Source of the DNA: Thermoplasmata archaeon
Lineage (GTDB): Archaea > Thermoplasmatota > E2 > DHVEG-1
DNA: 64,000 bases
NCBI GenBank assembly: GCA_014894395.1
Contig: JADBLO010000051.1
Coordinates: 4,641 to 68,640, forward strand
Direction: 5' to 3'
This document shows positions 1 through 41,948 of the stretch, piece by piece. Position 1 is the first letter of the stretch; every line of letters starts with the position of its first letter. Made by a program: the position numbers and the translations under genes. The notes beneath the pieces are model-generated. The model was not told the origin of the DNA and ran no database searches. It saw only the letters and a program-made list of their open reading frames with translations.

Positions 1-1148
1 AAACCGGGTATAACATAGGTATTGCTGTCGATAAAAAAACAGAAATTCTGCTTGTACAGAAACAAAAAACCACGGAAAAACAAACCAAAAGAATTCCATA
101 TGATCAAAAAAAACCAACCATCTCCATCGTTGGAACCGGGGGAACGATCGCCTGTTACATTGATTATCGGACCGGTGCGGTCCATCCTGCCTCATCTGCA
201 GAGGAACTCGCGTTCTCAGTCCCTGAAATCTTTGACCTTTGTAACGTGAAATCCCAGGTCGCATACCAGATGCTGAGCGAAAACATCGAGGTTTCTCACT
301 GGCAGGCCCTCGCGGAGATCATCGCAAAAGAACTCAACAACGGTGCAGCTGGCGTGGTAATCCCTCATGGAACTGATACGCTCGGATACACGGCAGCAGC
401 ATTATCATTTCTTCTGAAGAATCTCTCAGGACCAGTGGTGCTTGTCGGAGCGCAACGATCCAGTGACCGACCATCCTCTGACGCAGCGCAGAATCTCATC
501 GCTGCAGCAACCGTTGCTGCAACCTCAGATATCGGGGAAGTCGTCGTCGTTATGCATGGGGAAATCTCCGATACCTTCTCAACGATTCATCGAGGCACCA
601 AAGTACGAAAATTCCATACATCCAGACGAGACGCATTTCAAACCGTCAACGACCTTCCACTGGGAAAAGTAGAAAACGGTGCAATCACACTACACGCTCC
701 CTATCGCAAGAAGACAACAGGCCCGGTGACAACCGATACCAATATGGAGGAAGACGTCGCGATACTTTATTTCTATCCAGGGATGAAACCAAAGGACATC
801 CCAGAGAAAAAAGGGATTGTGCTAGCAGGGACCGGGCTAGGGCATGTATCAACAAAACTCCTTCCACGTGTCACTAAACTTATCAAAGACGGCACGGTAA
901 TCATCATGACCTCACAGTGTCTGTTCGGACGAGTCAACATGCGGGTGTATTCCGCAGGGCGCGACCTCATAAAAGTAGGCGTTCTCTCTGGAGAAGATAT
1001 GCTCCCTGAAACTGCCTATGTCAAACTCATGTGGGTACTTGCGCATGCAAAAAACAAGCAAGATATTGAACAACTCATGATGACGAATATTGCTGGTGAA
1101 ACAGCAGAACGAACAAAAAGTAACGCTTTCCTCCAACAAAACAATTAA
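1..1148 (+). CDS. gatD: Glu-tRNA(Gln) amidotransferase subunit D (GatD), 5'-truncated by window edge
   Basis: Frame 3 is open from base 3 into the 246..1148 ORF. It contains asparaginase-type motifs ISIVGTGGTIA and IPHGTDTL and the archaeal GatD C-terminal asparaginase domain. The N-terminal domain lies upstream of the window. Confidence 0.8.
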   Translation, partial: TGYNIGIAVDKKTEILLVQKQKTTEKQTKRIPYDQKKPTISIVGTGGTIACYIDYRTGAVHPASSAEELAFSVPEIFDLCNVKSQVAYQMLSENIEVSHWQALAEIIAKELNNGAAGVVIPHGTDTLGYTAAALSFLLKNLSGPVVLVGAQRSSDRPSSDAAQNLIAAATVAATSDIGEVVVVMHGEISDTFSTIHRGTKVRKFHTSRRDAFQTVNDLPLGKVENGAITLHAPYRKKTTGPVTTDTNMEEDVAILYFYPGMKPKDIPEKKGIVLAGTGLGHVSTKLLPRVTKLIKDGTVIIMTSQCLFGRVNMRVYSAGRDLIKVGVLSGEDMLPETAYVKLMWVLAHAKNKQDIEQLMMTNIAGETAERTKSNAFLQQNN

Positions 1149-3467: not shown

Positions 3468-6257
3468 CTATGATTTCACGACGCCGACCGGTTTTTTAGG
3501 ATTTTTTTTTGCTGTTTTCCCACTATCTTTTTCATCGGAATCGTTGATTTTTTTGCCGCTCTCAAGGGTTCCATCGGTGAGCCCTTCATCAAGGAGAACA
3601 TCATACTCCACCTTGTATTCACCAGGGTCACCCTCTGAGAACTTGAAGTTTTTCTCTCGGCATAACGCAATCATCGGGTAATTATCCTTCAGGACGACAC
3701 CGTTGACCTTTGTCAAGTTCTTATCTTTCGCGATTTCAATGAGGTAATCCAGGAACTCAGAGCCGAGTCCTTGTCGCTGCCATTCATCTGTAACAACCAG
3801 CGCGAATTCTGCTTCATCAACTCGTGCAGGATCAAGAATAAGCCGAGCAACGCCAAGCAGTCGCTTTTTCCCGTTTTCCTCCATTTCAGCAACAATCCCA
3901 ATTTCCCTGTCGTAATCGATATTACAAAATCTCGTACGAACCTCATGGGGCGTGTCTTTGATAATTCTGAAAAATCGGAATCGCACGGTTTCTTCAGAGA
4001 ACGTCTTGAACATCTCCAGCCACATGTTTTCATCCTCTGGTTTTATCGGGCGGAGCAAAGCTTTCTTTCCATCTTTTAGTGTGATAGGTTTCATGTACTT
4101 GGTCGGATATGGTGTAATGATGAGATGCGGATGTTTCTCTGGCTCAGGATCAAGGATTATCCGCGCGTCCACCGCAATGAGATCATTTCCCTGCGGAATC
4201 AATGGGTTGATATCAACTTCTTTAATCTCAGGATGATCGATAAGCATCTGTGAAAACTTAATCATGGTTTCTTCGACTTTCTTCATATCAACAGGCGGGA
4301 CGTTCCTGAATCCTTTCAAAAGCTCATAGGCTTTTGTTTTTTCTATGATACGCTGTGCCAAGGTCTGGTTCAGAGGTGGAAACCCGATCGCTCGATCCTT
4401 AAACAACTCCGTGTAGATACCACCTAACCCAAAGAGAATCACCGAACCAAACACCGGGTCTTTTTTCGACCCAAGAATCAGTTCATACCCATAGTTCTTC
4501 ACCTGCTTCTGAATTGTTACTCCAAGAATCGTCGCATTCGGGACCTTTTCTTTCGCCTGTTTCGTCATCGCTCTGAATGCTGTTTTAACATCATCGCCAC
4601 AGCGTAAATCAAGGACGACACCACCGACATCACTTTTATGGCTAATCTGAGGAGATAATATCTTCATCACGATAGGGTACCCGATTTTCTCTGCTGCTTT
4701 CACTGCTTTGTTTTCATTTTCTGCAATCATCGGTGTTGCCGTAGTAATCCCATAGAGTTCTAGAAATGTCTTTGCTTCACTCTCATTGAGCAGGGTTCTT
4801 TTCTCTTTGGCTGCCGCATCTAAGATTTTTTTGATTATCTCTGTATGAGCCGGGGTTTGTATGTTTAACTCCTCAGGAGTCTCATATAATTGACCTAAGT
4901 GACGTTCATAATGATACAAATACATATAGGATTCAACCGCTTCATCAGGCGACGCGTAGGTTGGGATATTGTTCCGGTTTAGGATTTCTCGTGCGTGATA
5001 CACACTTGCCGCACCGATAAATGAGGTGAGAATTGGTTTGGTTGATTTACGGGCAATATCAACAAGCCGGTCTGCAAGTTTCTGCGGGTCAGCCATCACC
5101 TGTGGGACACACAAGATTAACAGACCATCGATGTTTTTATCCTCAAGACAAATCTCAATTGCTTTCTGATAACGCTCCTCGTCACCATCTCCGATGATGT
5201 CAACAGGGTTGCCATGACTCCAATGTGACGGCAACACTTTATTGAGTTTTTCTATAGTTTCCGCAGACAACTGTGCAAGCTTACCACCTTTCTCGATGAT
5301 TGAATCCGTGGCAAGAACACCAGGTCCTCCAGCATTGGTCACAATCGCAATGTTCGGTCCCATCGGACGCGGTTGTTTCGCAAGAATAGAGGAGCAATTG
5401 AATAAATCCATGATATTCATAACACGGACAACACCAGATCTTCGGAATGCAGCATCATAGATGACGTCTTCACCGGCAAGAGCTCCTGTATGGGACGCGG
5501 CTGCTTTTGCTCCTTCTTTGAACCGACCGGATTTAATCACAATAATCGGTTTTGCGCGCGCGAACGCTTTCGTCGCACTCATGAACTTCCGTGCATCTGT
5601 AATCGATTCGATATACAGAACAATGCTTCGGGTGTGAATGTCCATCCCAAAGTAATCAATTAAATCACCGAAATCAACATCTAGCATAGAGCCAACAGAG
5701 ACGAACGAACTAAAACCGACCTTTGCCGCCGCAGCCCAGTCAAGGATCGCACCACACACCGCACCACTCTGAGAAACCAATGCAATAGACCCTTTCTCTG
5801 GCATGGAACCTGCAAATGTCGCATTCAAATTCAGGTACGGCATGATGAAACCGACACAATTTGGACCGATGATACGCAACTCATATTTTTTCTTCAGATC
5901 TAACAGACGCTGTTCACGTGCGACACCCTCAGGCCCGATTTCCTTAAATCCAGCAGAAATAATGAGAATACCTTTGATGCCTCGTATCCCACATTGTTCG
6001 ACAACATCGCAAACAACAGTTGCTGGTGTTGCAATAATCGCCAGATCAACAACTTTAGGAACCTCATTGATGGATGGATAAGCTTGTACTCCTTGAACAC
6101 TTTCTCGTTTTGAATTCACTGGGAAAACAACACCATCATACCCAGATCCTATCAGATTTCGAAAAATCCTGTATCCAGCTGAGCCGATGGTTTCGCTTGC
6201 GCCAATCACTGCGATACTTTTTGGTTTGAAGACTTTATCAAGATTTGCACCATTCAT
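3468..6257 (-). CDS. ADP-forming acetyl-CoA synthetase (fused alpha/beta, NDP-forming acyl-CoA synthetase family) with C-terminal GNAT acetyltransferase domain (Pat-like architecture)
   Basis: N-terminal CoA-binding domain (SIAVIGASETIGSAGYRIF), CoA-ligase domain with phosphohistidine motif AAASHTGALAG, and ATP-grasp with SPQISHKSDVGGV. C-terminal GNAT with the acetyl-CoA motif WQRQGLGSEFL. Start placed at MNGANLDKV (6257), which has GGAGGGA 7 nt upstream; the longer ORF to 6314 has no RBS. Confidence 0.85.
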   Translation of the reverse strand: MNGANLDKVFKPKSIAVIGASETIGSAGYRIFRNLIGSGYDGVVFPVNSKRESVQGVQAYPSINEVPKVVDLAIIATPATVVCDVVEQCGIRGIKGILIISAGFKEIGPEGVAREQRLLDLKKKYELRIIGPNCVGFIMPYLNLNATFAGSMPEKGSIALVSQSGAVCGAILDWAAAAKVGFSSFVSVGSMLDVDFGDLIDYFGMDIHTRSIVLYIESITDARKFMSATKAFARAKPIIVIKSGRFKEGAKAAASHTGALAGEDVIYDAAFRRSGVVRVMNIMDLFNCSSILAKQPRPMGPNIAIVTNAGGPGVLATDSIIEKGGKLAQLSAETIEKLNKVLPSHWSHGNPVDIIGDGDEERYQKAIEICLEDKNIDGLLILCVPQVMADPQKLADRLVDIARKSTKPILTSFIGAASVYHAREILNRNNIPTYASPDEAVESYMYLYHYERHLGQLYETPEELNIQTPAHTEIIKKILDAAAKEKRTLLNESEAKTFLELYGITTATPMIAENENKAVKAAEKIGYPIVMKILSPQISHKSDVGGVVLDLRCGDDVKTAFRAMTKQAKEKVPNATILGVTIQKQVKNYGYELILGSKKDPVFGSVILFGLGGIYTELFKDRAIGFPPLNQTLAQRIIEKTKAYELLKGFRNVPPVDMKKVEETMIKFSQMLIDHPEIKEVDINPLIPQGNDLIAVDARIILDPEPEKHPHLIITPYPTKYMKPITLKDGKKALLRPIKPEDENMWLEMFKTFSEETVRFRFFRIIKDTPHEVRTRFCNIDYDREIGIVAEMEENGKKRLLGVARLILDPARVDEAEFALVVTDEWQRQGLGSEFLDYLIEIAKDKNLTKVNGVVLKDNYPMIALCREKNFKFSEGDPGEYKVEYDVLLDEGLTDGTLESGKKINDSDEKDSGKTAKKNPKKPVGVVKS

Positions 6258-6311
6258 TGTGCCTCCCTCCATAGAATGAGCTGTAGAGCACCGAAACGAG
6301 GAAAGTAGAAT

Positions 6312-6326
6312 CAATTATATAAGAGT
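6312..6326 (-). promoter_or_regulatory. candidate archaeal TATA box (TTATATAA) for the ACD-GNAT gene
   Basis: On the minus strand TCTTATATAATTG lies about 55-60 nt upstream of the ATG at 6257 and just downstream of the PFOR terminator T-run. Confidence 0.3.
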
Positions 6327-6354
6327 ATCGCCACCTCTGATTTTTCATGGAAAA

Positions 6355-6370
6355 TGAAAAAAAAAAAGAC
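6355..6370 (-). terminator. oligo-T (T11) archaeal terminator downstream of PFOR
   Basis: An A11 run on the plus strand (T11 on the coding strand) about 26 nt after the PFOR stop. Confidence 0.4.
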
Positions 6371-6392: not shown

Positions 6393-10004
<3,612 letters not shown>

Positions 10005-10058: not shown

Positions 10059-11093
10059 TTAGAGGCTCCAGTAATCACTAAGGTATTGCTTTAGCTGCTG
10101 AACGGTGTTTTTTACTTCTTCCGGGTCGGTATCAGGTATTTCCTCTTCTTCTAAGAAATCATCATTCCCAAGGAGTCCACAGAAAATATTATAGTAGGAT
10201 TTAATGCAGGCCACACTATTATACCCCCCACCAAGGAGAACAAGAAGTTTCCTACAAGTCTCCTGGGAGAGCCCCGCAACACTTTTTGCCAGATGATAAT
10301 ACGTCTGATAGGTAAGATTCAGGTCAGCAAGTGGATCCGCATGATGGGTATCAACACCGGATTGATAGAGGATGATGTCCGGCTTGAATTGCCTGGTGAT
10401 TGGTGGGACGATTTCTTCAAATGCCATTCTATAGCTCGCTCCACCAGTACCGGGAGGAAACGGGAGATTGACGGTATAACCTGTAGCCTCTTCCCGACTG
10501 ATGGTTTCGACACTCCCGGTACCAGGATATAGGGTCCGTCCATCCTGATGAAACGACAGGTTCAAGACTGTTTTATCATCAATATAAATATCCTGGGTAC
10601 CGTTCCCATGATGGACATCCAGGTCAATGATCATGAATCGTTTCAATTTGTGTTTCTGTCGGAGATACTCAATGGTTATTGCGATATCGTTAAAGAAACA
10701 AAACCCTGAGGAGTGCCCCTTGCTTGCATGGTGAAAGCCACCGAGCGGATTTACCGCTACCTCATATCCTTCAAAGAGTTTTTCACCTGCAAACATACTT
10801 CCGCCAGTAGCAAGACTTGCCACCTCAAAAATCCCTTTTGGGGCAGGTGTATCTTCTGAAAGCCATCCACCGGTTTGACTGAGCTTTTTCACATGCTCTA
10901 CGTAGGATGGATCATGTACTTTGAGCAAGTCTGCTTCTGTTGCTTTTTTTGGTGTAAAAATAATAAATTCAGAAAGCACGCTTTTTTCTTTGAGAAACGC
11001 CATGGTGTTCTTTGGTTTATCACCAATGAGCGGATGATCGGTGCCCAGGTCATACTTGTTGTAATCCTCATGATAAACAATAGCTCGTTTCAT
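10059..11093 (-). CDS. histone deacetylase-superfamily protein (AcuC / acetoin-utilization / acetylpolyamine amidohydrolase-like Zn deacetylase)
   Basis: HDAC motifs GGFHHA, DLDVHHGNGT and GGGY; 345 aa from MKRAIVYHEDY (11093). The longer ORF to 11195 adds an unlikely 34-aa leader. Confidence 0.8.
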   Translation of the reverse strand: MKRAIVYHEDYNKYDLGTDHPLIGDKPKNTMAFLKEKSVLSEFIIFTPKKATEADLLKVHDPSYVEHVKKLSQTGGWLSEDTPAPKGIFEVASLATGGSMFAGEKLFEGYEVAVNPLGGFHHASKGHSSGFCFFNDIAITIEYLRQKHKLKRFMIIDLDVHHGNGTQDIYIDDKTVLNLSFHQDGRTLYPGTGSVETISREEATGYTVNLPFPPGTGGASYRMAFEEIVPPITRQFKPDIILYQSGVDTHHADPLADLNLTYQTYYHLAKSVAGLSQETCRKLLVLLGGGYNSVACIKSYYNIFCGLLGNDDFLEEEEIPDTDPEEVKNTVQQLKQYLSDYWSL

Positions 11094-11277
11094 AGTAACC
11101 GATAGGGAAATCGCACGGTATGTAAAAAGGTTCCCTTCCATGTATAAATATTCACAGTTAAACACATATATCTGTTCAGTATTTACATCAAACACCTAGT
11201 TACCTCTCTGTGGGGGATCTCTTCAACAACACACTTGCATAAATTACGAAGGAAGGCACCTAGATTCCTGTGTCATC

Positions 11278-12291
11278 ATGGTGACGATAATGACCACCGA
11301 AAAAAAGAAAAAAGAATCAAGCAAGAAACTCCAGATCGCATTGTATTGGGCTGCAAGCTGTGGCGGTTGTGAAATCGGGATGCTTGACATTGACGAAAAA
11401 ATCCTCGATGTGACCGCTGCTGCTGATATCGTGTTTTGGCCTGTTGCTATTGACACAAAATACAAAGACGTTGAGGCATTAGAAGATCAGAGCATTGACG
11501 TATGTTTTTTCAACGGCGGTATCCGCACCTCAGAACATGAACATCTCGCAAAACTCCTACGGAAGAAATCAAAGGTTCTGATCTCATTTGGCGCCTGTGC
11601 GGTGAGTGGAGGAATCCCTGGTCTCGCGAACCTCGCAAACCGCGAGGAGGTCTTCAAAACAGTGTACTTGGAGAACCCATCAACAGAAAATCCAGAGAAA
11701 ATTCTCCCGAAACCAAAAACCAAGGTAAAAGAAGGAGAACTCACGATCCCAGAATTTTATGACACGGTGAAAAGCCTTGATCAGGTCGTTGAGGTTGATT
11801 ACTTCATTCCTGGTTGCCCGCCCCCACCATGGTTGATCCTTGATGCGTTTAACGCTATAGTAGAAAACAAGCTTCCATCGAAAGGTTCAGTTCTTGCACC
11901 ACTTAAATCAGTATGTGACGAATGCCGATTCAAATTATCAGAAAAGAAAATCAACACCATCAAACGCATTTACGAACTTGAAAAAATCGAGGAGAAATGC
12001 TTCCTGGAACAAAGCGTGATCTGCATGGGACCTGCGACACGGTCTGGGTGCCGTGGCAGATGCATGGAAGGTAACATGCCGTGTACCGGCTGTGGTGGAA
12101 TACTCCCCAACGCTCTTGATCAGGGAGCAAGTATGATTTCCGCGCTCGCTTCAATCCTTGGCGTGGAAACCGAACAAGGGATGAACGATGAAGAGGTCGA
12201 CAAACTCATCGAAGAGGTACGGGATGTGGTCGGAACATTCTACAAATACACGTTACCAGCATCACTGATTAACCGGAAGGTGATGAAATGA
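11278..12291 (+). CDS. mvhG: [NiFe]-hydrogenase small subunit, Mvh/group-3 type (MvhG-like)
   Basis: CGGCEIG proximal-cluster motif near the N-terminus and further Cys clusters (CxxC..CxGC). ATGA overlap with the large subunit gene. An alternative ATG at 11290 is possible. Confidence 0.85.
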   Translation: MVTIMTTEKKKKESSKKLQIALYWAASCGGCEIGMLDIDEKILDVTAAADIVFWPVAIDTKYKDVEALEDQSIDVCFFNGGIRTSEHEHLAKLLRKKSKVLISFGACAVSGGIPGLANLANREEVFKTVYLENPSTENPEKILPKPKTKVKEGELTIPEFYDTVKSLDQVVEVDYFIPGCPPPPWLILDAFNAIVENKLPSKGSVLAPLKSVCDECRFKLSEKKINTIKRIYELEKIEEKCFLEQSVICMGPATRSGCRGRCMEGNMPCTGCGGILPNALDQGASMISALASILGVETEQGMNDEEVDKLIEEVRDVVGTFYKYTLPASLINRKVMK

Positions 12292-13745
12292 GAACTATAA
12301 CGATTGACCCGATCACCCGGTTAGAAGGCCATGGAAAAATCAGCATCTTCCTTGATGAACACGGTGATGTCGAAAACGCGTACCTACAGATCCCAGAGCT
12401 CCGAGGATTCGAAAAATTCTCAGAAGGACGACGCGCTGAGGATATGCCGCAGATCACCTCTCGCATCTGTGGAGTCTGTCCAGTTGCTCATCATATTGCT
12501 GCGGCGAAAGCATTGGATGCAGCGTTTCATGTCGACCCGCCCGCGGCAGCAAAGAAACTCCGGGAACTCTTGTATTGCGGATACATCATCTATGACCATA
12601 TCCTGCATTTCTATTTCCTTGGGGGCCCTGATTTTATCGTTGGCCCGGAAGCACCAGCTGCAAAAAGAAACATCCTAGGTGTTATAGAAAAAGCAGGAAT
12701 TGACGTTGCAAAGGATGTTATAAAACATCGGGCGTACGGTCAGAAGATCACCGCGATCCTTGGCGGGAAAGCAACACACCCGGTCTGCGGGCTTCCTGGT
12801 GGTGTCTCCAAGGGACTGGTAAAAGACGAGGTCAAAGAAATCAAAGACATGGTTGCTTCCTGTAACACCTTTGCAAAATTCACCTTGAATTTATTTGATG
12901 ATATTGTGCTTAAAAACAAAGAGTATGTGGACCTTATTCGCTCTGACCCGTACACGCTGAAAACCTACAATATGGGTCTCGTCGATAAGCATAACAAGGT
13001 CAATTTCTACGACGGGATGATTCGAGTCAGCGACCAAGAAGCAAACGAAGTCGAAAAGTTCGAAGGCAAAGACTATACAAAACATATCGCAGAGAAAGTC
13101 GAAGAATGGAGCTACATGAAATTCCCGTACCTTAAAAGCATTGGATGGCATGGACTTCAAGACGGGAAAAAAAGTGGCATATACCGTGTTGGCCCCTTAG
13201 GAAGGCTAAATGCAGCTGAAGGCATGGCAACCCCACAAGCAGAGAAAGAATACAAACGCATGTTCGACACCCTAGGAGGAAAACCAGTGAACTCAACACT
13301 TGCGTTCCATTGGGCACGACTCATCGAACTGTTGTATGCAACCGAACGAGCCAAAGAACTCATTGAGGATTCAGAGATTACCTCTTCACATATTCGAAAC
13401 CCGGTCGGAAATCCAGGGGCAGGAATCGGCGTGGTTGAGGCGGCACGAGGAACCTTGATCCACGACTACAAACTTGACAAGAACGGATTAGTTGAGAAAG
13501 CAAACCTCATTGTTGCAACCACGAATAATGCGGGTGCAATCACCATGTCGGTCCGTGATGCCGCCAAAGGCGTGATAAAGAAAGGAAACGTCAACGACGG
13601 GCTGCTCAACAAAGTCGAAATGGCGTTCCGTGCGTACGACCCGTGTTTTGGGTGCGCGACGCATACATTACCTGGTGGGATGCCCTTGACCGTGAATATT
13701 TATGATCACAAGAAGAACCTCTCAAAAACAATCTCACGAATCTAG
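12288..13745 (+). CDS. mvhA: [NiFe]-hydrogenase large subunit (MvhA-like)
   Basis: N-terminal RICGVCPVAHH and C-terminal DPCFGCATH Ni-binding motifs, followed by a ~22-aa C-terminal extension of the kind removed by the maturation protease. Confidence 0.9.
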   Translation: MRTITIDPITRLEGHGKISIFLDEHGDVENAYLQIPELRGFEKFSEGRRAEDMPQITSRICGVCPVAHHIAAAKALDAAFHVDPPAAAKKLRELLYCGYIIYDHILHFYFLGGPDFIVGPEAPAAKRNILGVIEKAGIDVAKDVIKHRAYGQKITAILGGKATHPVCGLPGGVSKGLVKDEVKEIKDMVASCNTFAKFTLNLFDDIVLKNKEYVDLIRSDPYTLKTYNMGLVDKHNKVNFYDGMIRVSDQEANEVEKFEGKDYTKHIAEKVEEWSYMKFPYLKSIGWHGLQDGKKSGIYRVGPLGRLNAAEGMATPQAEKEYKRMFDTLGGKPVNSTLAFHWARLIELLYATERAKELIEDSEITSSHIRNPVGNPGAGIGVVEAARGTLIHDYKLDKNGLVEKANLIVATTNNAGAITMSVRDAAKGVIKKGNVNDGLLNKVEMAFRAYDPCFGCATHTLPGGMPLTVNIYDHKKNLSKTISRI

Positions 13746-39494: not shown

Positions 39495-41948
39495 ATGGTG
39501 AGAGAGAAAAAAAATAAAATATTTAATATTGAGAAATTACATGAGCTTATAGATAGCGCAGCTCTCCCTAAACACAACAATACTTCGTCGTATAATGATA
39601 AAAACCTCGAATCTTTACTAAATCGATTATCTGATGAACCATCAAAAAGCAACAAAAAAGTAACATCATCTAATTTAATACATCCAAAATCTGAGAGTTT
39701 AACACCACGAACTGTTGTCCATAAACGAGAAGATATTCAGAAAAAAGAAGAAAGAGTTATTCAGATAGAACTAGGACCAAAGGCAATAAAAAAACAAAAA
39801 GAACATGCTATCGTGGGCCTTGTTTCTCCAAGGGGGGATCTTTTTACTGAAGAATCTCTTTACGAGATTGAAAAGATTGCGTTTCTAGAAGAAGAACCTG
39901 TGGAAGTGAAACCAACAGATATTTCGAAAGAATCAGAGATTCAACAAGAATTCATTCAAGTGGTATCCGACTGGGAGCATAAAGAGAAACATCTTCCTGA
40001 ATGGGAACCAGTGACAAAGGAAATAACTGAAAAAGAAATTGTTGAGGTTAAAAAAGGAAAGTCAATTGAGACGTTTCTTCCTGAGTTTGAACGAGTTGAT
40101 GAAAAACAGTCACCGTTACCATCCCGTTCTCCTGAAAAAGAAAGCAGAATACATTCATTTGAACCAGTGAAATTTGAAGCAGTCAGGGAGGAGAAACAAC
40201 AGGTGGAACGATCAGAGGTACGAGCGAAGGAGAAAGCAGAATCACTACGCAAGAAACAGGAAGAAAAACAAGCACGACAAGAAACAAAGGAGAAAGAACA
40301 GGAAGCAAAAAGACAAGCAAAAGAACATGATAAGAAATTACAGCAAGAACGGTTACAGATCCAAAATGAACAACGAGAGGAACAGAAACGCAAAGAATTG
40401 GAGAAGAAAAAAGCATCTGCTGAGGCAAAAGAAAAAGACCTAGAAGAACAACGTCTAATAAAAGAACGCAAAGAGAAACTACGATTAGACCGATTGGAAT
40501 TACAGAAGAAGGAGAAAGCAGAATCACTACGCAAGAAACAGGAAGAAAAACAAGCACGACAAGAAACAAAGGAGAAAGAACAGGAAGCAAAAAGACAAGC
40601 AAAAGAACATGATAAGAAATTACAGCAAGAACGGTTACAGATCCAAAATGAACAACGAGAGGAACAGAAACGCAAAGAATTGGAGAAGAAAAAAGCATCT
40701 GCTGAGGCAAAAGAAAAAGACCTAGAAGAACAACGTCTAATAAAAGAACGCAAAGAGAAACTACGATTAGACCGATTGGAATTACAGAAGAAGGAGAAAG
40801 AAAAACAAAAGCCGAGGAAGTCAGAAAAAGAAAAGAAATCATTTGTTACAGCCTCAGTTGACCAAAAGAAGTCAGCTCGAGTGGAAACAACGAATGTTGG
40901 AGCTGCTCGGATTAAACAAAAGCAGATTCGTAAGAAACCTTTACCCGCCCAAAAGGAAGAACAACCGATGGTTTCCGCCTGGGAGACACTCAGTGAAGAG
41001 ACTCATAAAGAAGATGCTGGTGACATGCCTACCGAACCAAAAGAACCGTTTGCACATGAAACGATTGAGCTTATTTCAAAGGAGAAAGAACGAGAACAGA
41101 AGCGTATTGAGAAGGAACAGAATGAAAAAAAGCAGCTAGAACGATTGGAGGTAAAGAGGAAAGAGAAAGAGGAATTGAAACGAAAGAAGTTGCAGGAGAA
41201 GCAGCGGGCGGATCTATTTGCGTTAAAGAAGGAAGACAAAGAGCAAAGGAAACAAAAGAATTTGGAGGAGAAACAAGCAAAAAAGGAAGCGAAGGAGAGG
41301 GAGCTGGAGGAGGAAAAACGTGCAAAGGCGGAACTGAAATCGAAGCAGCGTATACTTGCTTTAAAAGAGCTCGAATGGAGGACGAAGGAGAAAGACGAAC
41401 AAAAACTGAAGGAACTTGAGCAGAAGGAGGAGAAGAAGCGTTTAAGTGAACTTGGTATTGTTGGAACAGCAAAGGAAACAGGATTAATAGACGAACGGAA
41501 AAAGGCAGAGGAACAGAAACAGATAAATGACGTAGTAAGAATTGCTGCGGAGGTAAAAGAACAACGAAAACTTAAGACTTTTGAACGTAAGAGGCAGAAA
41601 GAACGGAAAAAAACAGAGAAAGAAGATCAGAAATTAAAAGCGATTGAAGAAAAGAAAGCCAGGAAGAAAATGAATCTACATTTAGAAGAAGAAGTAATCA
41701 AGGAAAAACTTTCTGGTCAAGTAGAACGAATTGACATCTTCGTCGGATTTGATAGTATTGATCAAGAGACCGCAGATCTTCTCTTAAAATGTGGATATAC
41801 CTCAGTAGAAAAGTTACGGGAAGCAAACGTAAAGGACCTCATAAAAATTGGATTAAAGAAAAAAACCGCGCAGATGATACTTGCTGAAAGTGGAGAATTT
41901 GTCGAATGGGAAGTGTATGATGCTGATGAACATCTTGAGAAAATCTGA
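39495..41948 (+). CDS. K/E/R/Q-rich (ER/K-type, predicted long helical) protein with internal exact tandem duplication and C-terminal (HhH)2 domain
   Basis: 817 aa. The central roughly 500 aa is low-complexity and charged (KEKEQEAKRQAKE...). A 94-aa unit is repeated exactly twice. The C-terminus IFVGFDSIDQETADLLLKCGYTSVEKLREANVKDLIKIGLKKKTAQMIL has an (HhH)2 pattern. Confidence 0.7.
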   Translation: MVREKKNKIFNIEKLHELIDSAALPKHNNTSSYNDKNLESLLNRLSDEPSKSNKKVTSSNLIHPKSESLTPRTVVHKREDIQKKEERVIQIELGPKAIKKQKEHAIVGLVSPRGDLFTEESLYEIEKIAFLEEEPVEVKPTDISKESEIQQEFIQVVSDWEHKEKHLPEWEPVTKEITEKEIVEVKKGKSIETFLPEFERVDEKQSPLPSRSPEKESRIHSFEPVKFEAVREEKQQVERSEVRAKEKAESLRKKQEEKQARQETKEKEQEAKRQAKEHDKKLQQERLQIQNEQREEQKRKELEKKKASAEAKEKDLEEQRLIKERKEKLRLDRLELQKKEKAESLRKKQEEKQARQETKEKEQEAKRQAKEHDKKLQQERLQIQNEQREEQKRKELEKKKASAEAKEKDLEEQRLIKERKEKLRLDRLELQKKEKEKQKPRKSEKEKKSFVTASVDQKKSARVETTNVGAARIKQKQIRKKPLPAQKEEQPMVSAWETLSEETHKEDAGDMPTEPKEPFAHETIELISKEKEREQKRIEKEQNEKKQLERLEVKRKEKEELKRKKLQEKQRADLFALKKEDKEQRKQKNLEEKQAKKEAKERELEEEKRAKAELKSKQRILALKELEWRTKEKDEQKLKELEQKEEKKRLSELGIVGTAKETGLIDERKKAEEQKQINDVVRIAAEVKEQRKLKTFERKRQKERKKTEKEDQKLKAIEEKKARKKMNLHLEEEVIKEKLSGQVERIDIFVGFDSIDQETADLLLKCGYTSVEKLREANVKDLIKIGLKKKTAQMILAESGEFVEWEVYDADEHLEKI
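40227..40790. repeat. perfect 2 x 282-bp in-frame tandem direct repeat inside the K/E-rich gene
   Basis: A unit beginning AAGGAGAAAGCAGAATCACTACGCAAGAAACAGG recurs identically 282 bp later. The repeat boundary is ambiguous by about 10 nt. Confidence 0.85.

Follow-up and report, generated by a model that had tools for sequence, protein, structure and literature searches.

Can one polypeptide both make ATP from acetyl-coenzyme A (acetyl-CoA) and acetylate other proteins? The question is raised by a gene in a 64,000-nucleotide stretch of genomic DNA from a Thermoplasmata archaeon (contig JADBLO010000051.1; the whole stretch is called the window here, and coordinates are counted within it). Its product joins the modules of an acetyl-CoA synthetase of the ADP-forming kind (ACD) to a C-terminal acetyltransferase domain of the GNAT family. 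An original prediction, made from the sequence alone, was that both catalytic histidines of the ACD are retained and that the enzyme is possibly bifunctional. Our answer is a qualified yes. The ACD half (residues 1-702) appears catalytically competent, and the proposition that both halves are functional is well supported by sequence.

Domain architecture and catalytic positions

The predicted Pat-like order, CoA-binding, CoA-ligase, Ligase_CoA_2, ATP-grasp and C-terminal GNAT, is borne out by Pfam, and all five ACD subdomains are present, as judged by Pfam and by a full-length alignment to the structure 8wzu. The gene and the parts of its product are as follows.

3468..6257, minus strand: ACD-GNAT fusion gene, ATG at 6257-6255, stop codon at 3470-3468, 929 aa (list of open reading frames, Pfam, phmmer against PDB)
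5844..6221, minus strand: subdomain 1, CoA-binding Rossmann fold, CoA_binding_2 (PF13380, E 7e-23), residues 13-138
5385..5795, minus strand: subdomain 2, flavodoxin-like CoA-ligase, Succ_CoA_lig (PF13607, E 1e-55), residues 155-291, with SQSGA at 162-166 and Glu217
5472..5504, minus strand: swinging-loop motif AAASHTGALAG, residues 252-262, with the His256 codon at 5490-5492
4941..5348, minus strand: subdomain 5, Ligase_CoA_2 (PF19045, E 4e-15), residues 304-439, with NAGGPGV at 308-314
4152..4814, minus strand: ATP-grasp_5, subdomains 3 and 4 (PF13549, E 2e-83), residues 482-702, with Lys532, Asp682 and Asn684
4617..4655, minus strand: motif SPQISHKSDVGGV, residues 535-547, with His540, the second, beta-type histidine
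3600..4058, minus strand: GNAT domain (PF00583, PF13302), residues about 734-886 (Pfam 734-867), with R761, F763, E817, F818 and the P-loop Q827-x-x-G830-x-G832
3471..3590, minus strand: Lys-rich C-terminal tail, residues 890-929, predicted confidence (pLDDT) below 50

The best PDB sequence matches found with phmmer are E. coli PatZ (9it0/9isq, E 1e-168) and Nmar_0206, the ADP-forming 4-hydroxybutyryl-CoA synthetase of N. maritimus (8wzu, E 7e-155); with such values the relationship is one of homology rather than chance. Pyrococcus and Korarchaeum ACD subunits are also among the best matches, and the ATP-grasp part matches the beta subunit of ckcACD1 at E 2e-55. Nmar_0206 has the identical single-chain order of subdomains, 1-2-5-4-3. 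The characterised ACDs (EC 6.2.1.13; ckcACD1 of Ca. Korarchaeum cryptofilum, 4xyl; Pyrococcus, 2csu/1wr2) have their subdomains, histidines, power-helix motifs and ATP-grasp residues in common with the window protein. What the latter adds is a GNAT domain of about 150 residues and the Lys-rich tail, whereas these named ACDs are without an acetyltransferase domain. An AlphaFold model of the monomer (mean pLDDT 72; predicted TM score, pTM, 0.61) served for overall fold assignment only; its best full-length match is PatZ (TM 0.70-0.77). Low confidence at the swinging loop and in the last 40 residues is expected of mobile or disordered parts.

Do the histidines lie at the catalytic positions? The original prediction would fall if they did not; AAASHTGALAG and SPQISHKSDVGGV are present in the form it gave, and both histidines align with those of ACDs. 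In a focused alignment His256 pairs with residue 254 of ckcACD1 alpha (4xyl_A) and with H256 of Nmar_0206, which sits on the 'swinging loop'. In the report of the PatZ structure, H254 is given as the histidine with which ACD1 carries out catalysis, and PatZ is said to be without it (PMC12184503). His540 is paired with a beta-subunit histidine, both in ckcACD1 (4xyl_B) and in P. horikoshii PH1789 (1wr2), within the motif SPQxxHKSDxGGV, and also matches Nmar_0206 H535 and PatZ H531. For P. furiosus ACD we take the histidines to be His257 of alpha and His71 of beta, the numbers that the original prediction gave, and their partners to be Glu218 of alpha and Asp212 of beta; the residues aligned here are E217 and D682. 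These two residues and the segments SQSGA and NAGGPGV are identical to those of stand-alone ACD representatives, and N684 and both glycine-rich 'power helix' motifs are kept. The NCBIfam model TIGR02717 ('acetate--CoA ligase alpha subunit') is passed with 568.6 bits against a cut-off of 567.15.

The GNAT acetyl-CoA motif QRQGLGSEF was likewise found, at residues 827-835. In a global pairwise alignment the PatZ residues R754, F756, E809 and F810 correspond to R761, F763, E817 and F818, the PatZ glycines G822/G824 to G830/G832, and I846 to V854. Alanine at R754, F756, E809 or I846 cuts the activity of PatZ significantly, and G822-G824 form its acetyl-CoA P-loop, whose general pattern is Q/R-x-x-G-x-G/A. 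The other nearest GNAT structures all belong to protein lysine acetyltransferases (S. lividans PatA, mycobacterial Pat and Sulfolobus Pat). Judged by these positions, the catalytic inventory of a Pat-type GNAT is intact. The tail (890-929, …SGKKINDSDEKDSGKTAKKNPKKPVGVVKS) has an identity of 0.29 among homologues and is absent from those of about 890 aa. Being Lys-rich and placed beside a lysine acetyltransferase domain, it could be a substrate for autoacetylation.

Comparison with PatZ and conservation in the family

E. coli PatZ (YfiQ/Pka) and S. enterica Pat are type I (class I-alpha) lysine acetyltransferases (KATs) and share with the window protein the five-domain order and the C-terminal GNAT. 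By its Pfam domains the window protein belongs to this type as the reviews define it (PMC6456759 and PMC8556138). The other part of the description, a synthetase domain that is dead through loss of its histidine, does not fit, as His256 and its loop are intact.

PatZ and the window protein are 35% identical over 880 aligned residues and have in common the catalytic Glu of the GNAT, the P-loop, the substrate-site Arg and Phe, and the beta histidine (H531 / H540). The alpha loop of PatZ (AQRLLNTTAGMD), however, has a four-residue deletion and no histidine. Its helix caps are degenerate (SQSGA to SQSAA, NAGGPG to NGAAPA), whereas the window protein matches stand-alone ACDs there; PatZ also has C134S and N684H relative to the window protein. 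Since PatZ has lost the alpha histidine only, the telling difference is to be sought in the alpha loop and in the glycine motifs. A further difference concerns K23, R26 and R81, which clamp acetyl-CoA in PatZ and are T23, S26 and V81 in the window protein; stand-alone ACD representatives likewise lack K23 and R26. PatZ is reported to be without ACD activity (PMC12184503).

How usual is an intact synthetase half? With the window protein as query we searched 1.84 billion cluster representatives (clusters at 50% identity), and the best 150 were put into an alignment. Of these, 24 are stand-alone ACDs about 700 aa long, all with both histidines, and 50 columns within residues 1-702 do not vary among these 24. 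The window protein keeps all 50 of these ACD-invariant columns and E. coli PatZ keeps 36. The median share kept is 0.96 in fusions with both histidines and 0.70 in fusions with neither. A GNAT domain is present in 124 of the 150 representatives, 106 of which have a complete ATP-grasp domain; among these 106, both histidines occur in 66, one in 15 and neither in 25. The losses of the two histidines are thus correlated, in keeping with a functional unit of which all parts are either maintained or lost together. Most of the sampled ACD-GNAT representatives (about 60%), in Archaea and Bacteria, keep the catalytic set, and its retention is not exceptional. Clusters with both histidines include proteins of Dehalococcoidales, Chitinophagales and Altiarchaeota, and all examined homologues from Desulfobacterota and Syntrophorhabdus keep both. 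With 66 of 106 sampled fusions in this state, the dead-domain description given in reviews is too narrow for the architecture.

In a neighbour-joining tree the state of the alpha histidine changes at least 17 times and the GNAT domain is gained or lost at least 13 times; the losses are scattered, and PatZ falls among fusions that retain the histidine. The tree is a crude one (distance-based, midpoint-rooted, with long branches for degenerate sequences), and we take it as a hint only that the alpha histidine was lost more than once.

Closer to the window protein, we compared 120 sequences with 71-97% identity to it (121 including the window protein itself). E217, H256, D682, E817, G830 and G832 are invariant in all 121, and H540 is invariant in a subset of 38 (alignment A1). 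Position 827 is Q in 79 of the 121 and H in 42. Mean identity is highest of all segments in the CoA-ligase subdomain, 0.88, and is 0.78 in the GNAT. Together with the 50 columns kept, such a pattern is what purifying selection on catalysis would predict, unlike ligand sensing alone.

A scan with one genome per species found a 98% identical fusion in 'uncultured Thermoplasmata archaeon MFD00709.bin.2.100'. Fusions with 80-94% identity occur in many metagenome-assembled genomes (MAGs) of Thermoplasmata/Thermoplasmatota, including SM1-50, M11B2D and 3300003432D; MAGs of this kind are relatives of MBG-D / Thermoprofundales (PMC6461988). Homologues with 74-88% identity in Thermoplasmatota and 'Euryarchaeota' MAGs bear the NCBI name 'bifunctional acetate--CoA ligase family protein/GNAT family N-acetyltransferase', in which 'bifunctional' reflects a naming rule, not an experiment. 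Elsewhere, homologues are labelled 'acetyltransferase', 'GNAT family N-acetyltransferase', 'acetate--CoA ligase alpha subunit' or 'hypothetical protein'. The window protein is one member of a large, annotated and biochemically unexplored class, not an oddity.

As a separate observation, the DMSP lyase DddX (PDB 7cm9) is a relative of the ACD module (residues 11-698, E 3e-65; TM to the model 0.62-0.63 when normalised to the query and 0.81-0.82 when normalised to the target). This kinship indicates that members of the ACD superfamily can catalyse reactions besides acyl-CoA synthesis.

Gene neighbourhood

What stands next to the fusion gene? Two genes lie upstream of it on the same strand.

6393..10004, minus strand: single-chain pyruvate:ferredoxin (flavodoxin) oxidoreductase gene (PFOR; TIGR02176), directly upstream of the fusion gene
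10059..11195, minus strand: Zn-dependent HDAC-family lysine deacetylase gene (PF00850, E 3e-85), probable start ATG 11093

The PFOR product scores 1926 bits with TIGR02176, against a cut-off of 911, and matches POR_N, PFOR_II, POR, EKR, Fer4 and TPP of Pfam; its true start is probably internal to the open reading frame. The HDAC-family product contains GGFHHA, DLDVHHGNG, GVDTHHADP and GGGY, which align with the catalytic domains of HDAC6. By its sequence motifs it has what is expected of Hist_deacetyl: the His-His dyad, the Asp/His/Asp zinc ligands and the catalytic Tyr. The closest structures are the HDAC6 catalytic domains and a bacterial HDAH / 'acetoin utilization protein' (5li3); no NCBIfam model matches this product.

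We read the arrangement of related loci from tblastn and called genes. Among archaeal loci with enough upstream sequence, 20 of 22 have the HDAC gene upstream of the fusion, with or without PFOR in between. The order HDAC-PFOR-fusion is seen in 15 distinct related Thermoplasmata loci and in three more that end within PFOR. In five others (L004, L007, L008, L022 and L024, with 73-80% identity) the HDAC gene adjoins the fusion without PFOR, and, this pair apart, L004, L007 and L008 have flanking genes that bear no relation to each other. Neither HDAC nor PFOR is nearby in the archaeal L005/6 and L014. Bacterial homologues of about 50% identity (Desulfobacterota, Syntrophorhabdus) have no deacetylase or PFOR in the examined neighbourhoods, where Mla transport, OmpA and protease/TPR genes are found. 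Since the HDAC pairing occurs without PFOR and between unrelated flanks, the deep association is that of writer and eraser, and PFOR is an addition specific to the clade.

A GNAT and an HDAC-type deacetylase are also encoded together in B. subtilis, where AcuA and AcuC control the AMP-forming synthetase AcsA. The likeness lies in a GNAT writer with a Zn-dependent HDAC-family eraser, the HDAC product being near 5li3. Unlike the small stand-alone AcuA, the writer here is fused to a complete ACD, and PFOR stands between writer and eraser in the clade. PatZ, for its part, is functionally paired with the sirtuin CobB (PMC6456759), whereas the window gene is paired with an HDAC-family gene.

Some further genes of these neighbourhoods deserve mention. 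In the window, genes for the small (Oxidored_q6) and large (NiFeSe_Hases) subunits of a [NiFe]-hydrogenase (11278-13745, plus strand) are divergent from the HDAC gene; being near a ferredoxin-reducing PFOR, they may bear on redox balance. Hdr-like genes (CCG, Fer4, Pyr_redox) lie close to the HDAC-fusion pair in L004 and L008. In L005/L006 (1-18715; homologue P0103 of a Methanomicrobiales-labelled MAG) the fusion is found among PIN/VapB/HicB toxin-antitoxin genes, together with a gene for a 1092-aa Tubulin_2-family protein; this looks like a mobile or variable region.

A hypothesis for the function of the fusion

What might such a protein do? Its architecture, residue conservation, neighbourhood and family distribution are shown by the analysis; that both halves are active, which way the flux runs, what is acetylated and how the halves are coupled is inferred. 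The reading we lean towards, and consider fairly probable, is that an acetate-forming, ATP-yielding ACD is fused to a lysine acetyltransferase, that the pair of writer and eraser acts together, and that the fusion switches Acs, the acetyl-CoA synthetase of the AMP-forming type, off while making acetate.

If the ACD half works as characterised ACDs do, acetyl-phosphate would be formed from acetyl-CoA and phosphate at the CoA site; its phosphoryl group would be taken up by His256 of the mobile loop, handed on to His540 in the ATP-grasp domain and finally given to ADP. The products would be acetate, CoA and ATP, and the reaction should be reversible, as it is in those enzymes. The GNAT domain would use acetyl-CoA for lysine acetylation of target proteins. 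The adjacent PFOR would supply the shared substrate by converting pyruvate to acetyl-CoA, and the product of the HDAC-family gene would be the eraser that reverses acetylation. If so, a single protein would contain an 'acetate switch'. Its ACD half would vent acetyl-CoA to acetate, with a gain of ATP, when the supply is ample. A block of Acs would then prevent an ATP-wasting futile cycle between acetate and acetyl-CoA, and the deacetylase would lift the block.

The protein classically targeted by Pat is Acs. AMP-forming Acs is encoded in Thermoprofundales MAGs and is highly transcribed in several (PMC6461988), and the MAGs with this enzyme include the source of L009, whose fusion is 94% identical. 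An active ACD beside an active Acs would waste ATP, so it is most economical to suppose that the fusion both makes acetate and turns Acs off. AMP-forming Acs is a plausible target of the acetylation. A gene for it was not identified among the scanned neighbouring and larger open reading frames of the window.

A number of points weigh against this reading. The searchable literature characterises only histidine-less fusions, and we found in it no assay of any ACD-GNAT fusion that retains the histidines, which is not proof of absence. Reviews call the synthetase domains of type I/II KATs inactive (PMC8556138), a view that rests on enterobacterial and Streptomyces proteins. In Syntrophus aciditrophicus nine genes are annotated as ACD, yet its extracts show almost no ADP-forming activity, only 0.02 U/mg (PMC4992975); hence intact-looking ACD genes need not carry flux. 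The pass of TIGR02717 is marginal. In the AlphaFold model confidence is low at the swinging loop and at interface segments, so that the active-site geometry is not confirmable from it. PFOR and fusion genes may not be co-transcribed, as discussed below with the signals in the spacer between them. We also considered whether the fusion could be the only ACD of its lineage and rejected this, as Thermoprofundales MAGs list stand-alone ACD beta subunits (K01905). With such genes in the lineage, acetate formation can be accounted for without the fusion.

Alternative explanations

Could the ACD-like module be a regulatory scaffold only, which, as in E. coli PatZ and S. enterica Pat, binds acetyl-CoA (and phosphate or nucleotide) and switches the GNAT on allosterically, its histidines being ancestral and without turnover? 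Several points speak for this. Architecture and overall fold are shared with PatZ, whose regulatory domain has kept the ability to bind both acetyl-CoA and phosphate at the ACD sites (PMC12184503), the stated view of the field is that the domains are inactive, and the lineage has separate ACD genes. Against it, all 50 ACD-invariant positions are kept, compared with 36 in PatZ and a median share of 0.70 in fusions with neither histidine. Residues that serve phosphoryl transfer only (H256, T257, G258, the glycine motifs and N684) are invariant over the 120 homologues, whereas the K23/R26/R81 clamp, with which PatZ holds acetyl-CoA, is not conserved in the window protein. The adjacency of PFOR also fits a metabolic role. 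We regard a scaffold without turnover as unlikely.

The ACD half might instead run in the opposite direction, making acyl-CoA from acetate or a short acid, ATP and CoA and feeding it locally to the GNAT. Acylation would then report carboxylate and ATP, not free acetyl-CoA, and the acyl group may not be acetyl. Channelling does predict that a module making CoA esters is fused to one using them, and HDAC adjacency without PFOR is the deeper-conserved arrangement. On the other hand, in the clade of the window the immediate neighbour is PFOR, a producer of acetyl-CoA. The equivalog models for 4-hydroxybutyrate and 3-hydroxypropionate ligases score 635 and 471, far below their cut-offs of 1300 in either case. 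A channel is not seen in the structural evidence, which is a monomer model of moderate confidence. This reverse coupling seems to us improbable, to about the same degree as the scaffold.

Finally, that the GNAT is not a protein lysine acetyltransferase at all but acts on small molecules, on N-termini or on itself for autoregulation (the Lys-rich tail included) strikes us as very unlikely, for although GNATs are functionally diverse, Pfam also matches the RimL-like Acetyltransf_3, PatZ autoacetylates (PMC8556138) and a variable Lys-rich tail is present, every one of the closest GNAT structures is that of a protein lysine acetyltransferase (with PatZ itself among them), the substrate-site residues R754 and F756 of PatZ are conserved, and a gene of the lysine deacetylase type is a conserved neighbour.

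Significance

We return to the reading in which an acetate-forming ACD and a lysine acetyltransferase are joined in one protein. As 'bifunctional' is a name that databases already apply, the idea is incremental rather than surprising. What is added here is the quantitative contrast with PatZ, the retention of the catalytic set as the majority state, and the conserved pairing with an archaeal HDAC gene. A 2025 paper gives single-domain GNATs as the common archaeal form and describes fusions of this kind as bacterial. Against the view of the synthetase part as a dead regulatory module, held in reviews, our survey sets machinery that looks intact in about 60% of sampled ACD-GNAT clusters, and the gene sits with PFOR and a deacetylase in abundant sediment archaea, relatives of MBG-D / Thermoprofundales.

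If both halves work, protein acetylation and the formation of acetate with a yield of ATP would be tied together within one protein. There would be a concrete pair of writer and eraser for lysine acetylation in archaea, where it is poorly understood (PMC12607858), and the evolution of sensors of the PatZ type would be explained. Metabolic reconstructions of uncultured archaea are affected, because the gene is annotated variously as ACD or as 'acetyltransferase'.

A more speculative suggestion can be made. The fusion that retains its histidines might be the common and probably ancestral form of the Pat family, a signalling enzyme coupled to flux, in which the state of an active, acetate-forming and ATP-yielding ACD (acetyl-CoA-bound, phosphohistidine or nucleotide-bound) gates the GNAT. 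Together with the HDAC it would be a previously undescribed archaeal acetylation switch tied to substrate-level phosphorylation, and enterobacterial Pat/PatZ would be its degenerate, sensing-only descendant. We offer this wider scheme as possible, though doubtful.

Start codon, upstream signals and other features of the window

Where does the fusion protein begin? The longest open reading frame over the region (3468..6314, minus strand) starts with TTG and has 948 aa. The original prediction placed the start 19 codons inside it, behind GGAGG, and four lines of evidence back this start, ATG 6257. The predicted length of 930 aa needs a small correction: the frame and the ATG stand, and the protein has 929 aa, 930 being the count with the stop codon. 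The signals concerned are these.

6262..6270, minus strand: Shine-Dalgarno-like GGAGGGAGG, 4 nt upstream of the ATG, read from the sequence
6315..6330, minus strand: CGATA...TTATATAA element, resembling an archaeal transcription factor B recognition element (BRE) and TATA box, about 58 nt upstream of the ATG, conserved
6357..6367, minus strand: run of eleven T (T11), archaeal terminator-like, 26 nt past the PFOR stop codon

In an alignment of upstream regions the GGAGGGA box and the ATG are invariant across nine related loci, and homologue N-termini begin MNGANLDK, matching a start at ATG 6257. The columns of CGATA and TATA are invariant or nearly so in the nine aligned loci, and the element is a putative promoter. 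The TTG of the longest frame (6312-6314) directly abuts the TTATATAA box, which CGATA precedes, so that the 19 additional codons belong, almost certainly, to the promoter. A T-rich tract occupies the position of the T11 run in nine of nine loci, where it may act as a terminator. With a T-run and a TATA-like box of its own in the spacer behind PFOR, the fusion gene may have its own promoter.

Two GatD-like asparaginase-family genes are found in L001/L003 (1189-4635, 15185-16507), one beside GatE/GatB-like genes and the other beside NMD3. The GatD-like gene of the window (246-1148) is the copy on the NMD3 side, cut by the window edge. To have NMD3 and a GatD-like gene as neighbours is in keeping with an archaeal genome.

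An open reading frame of 817 aa at 39495-41948 (plus strand) is Lys/Glu-rich and coiled-coil-like, its sole Pfam match being a C-terminal helix-hairpin-helix; the extreme purine skew of the stretch from 40 to 42 kb is accounted for by it. Within it lies a perfect 282-bp tandem duplication (40226-40800; 2.0 copies, 100% match), which is either a very recent duplication or an artefact of assembly.

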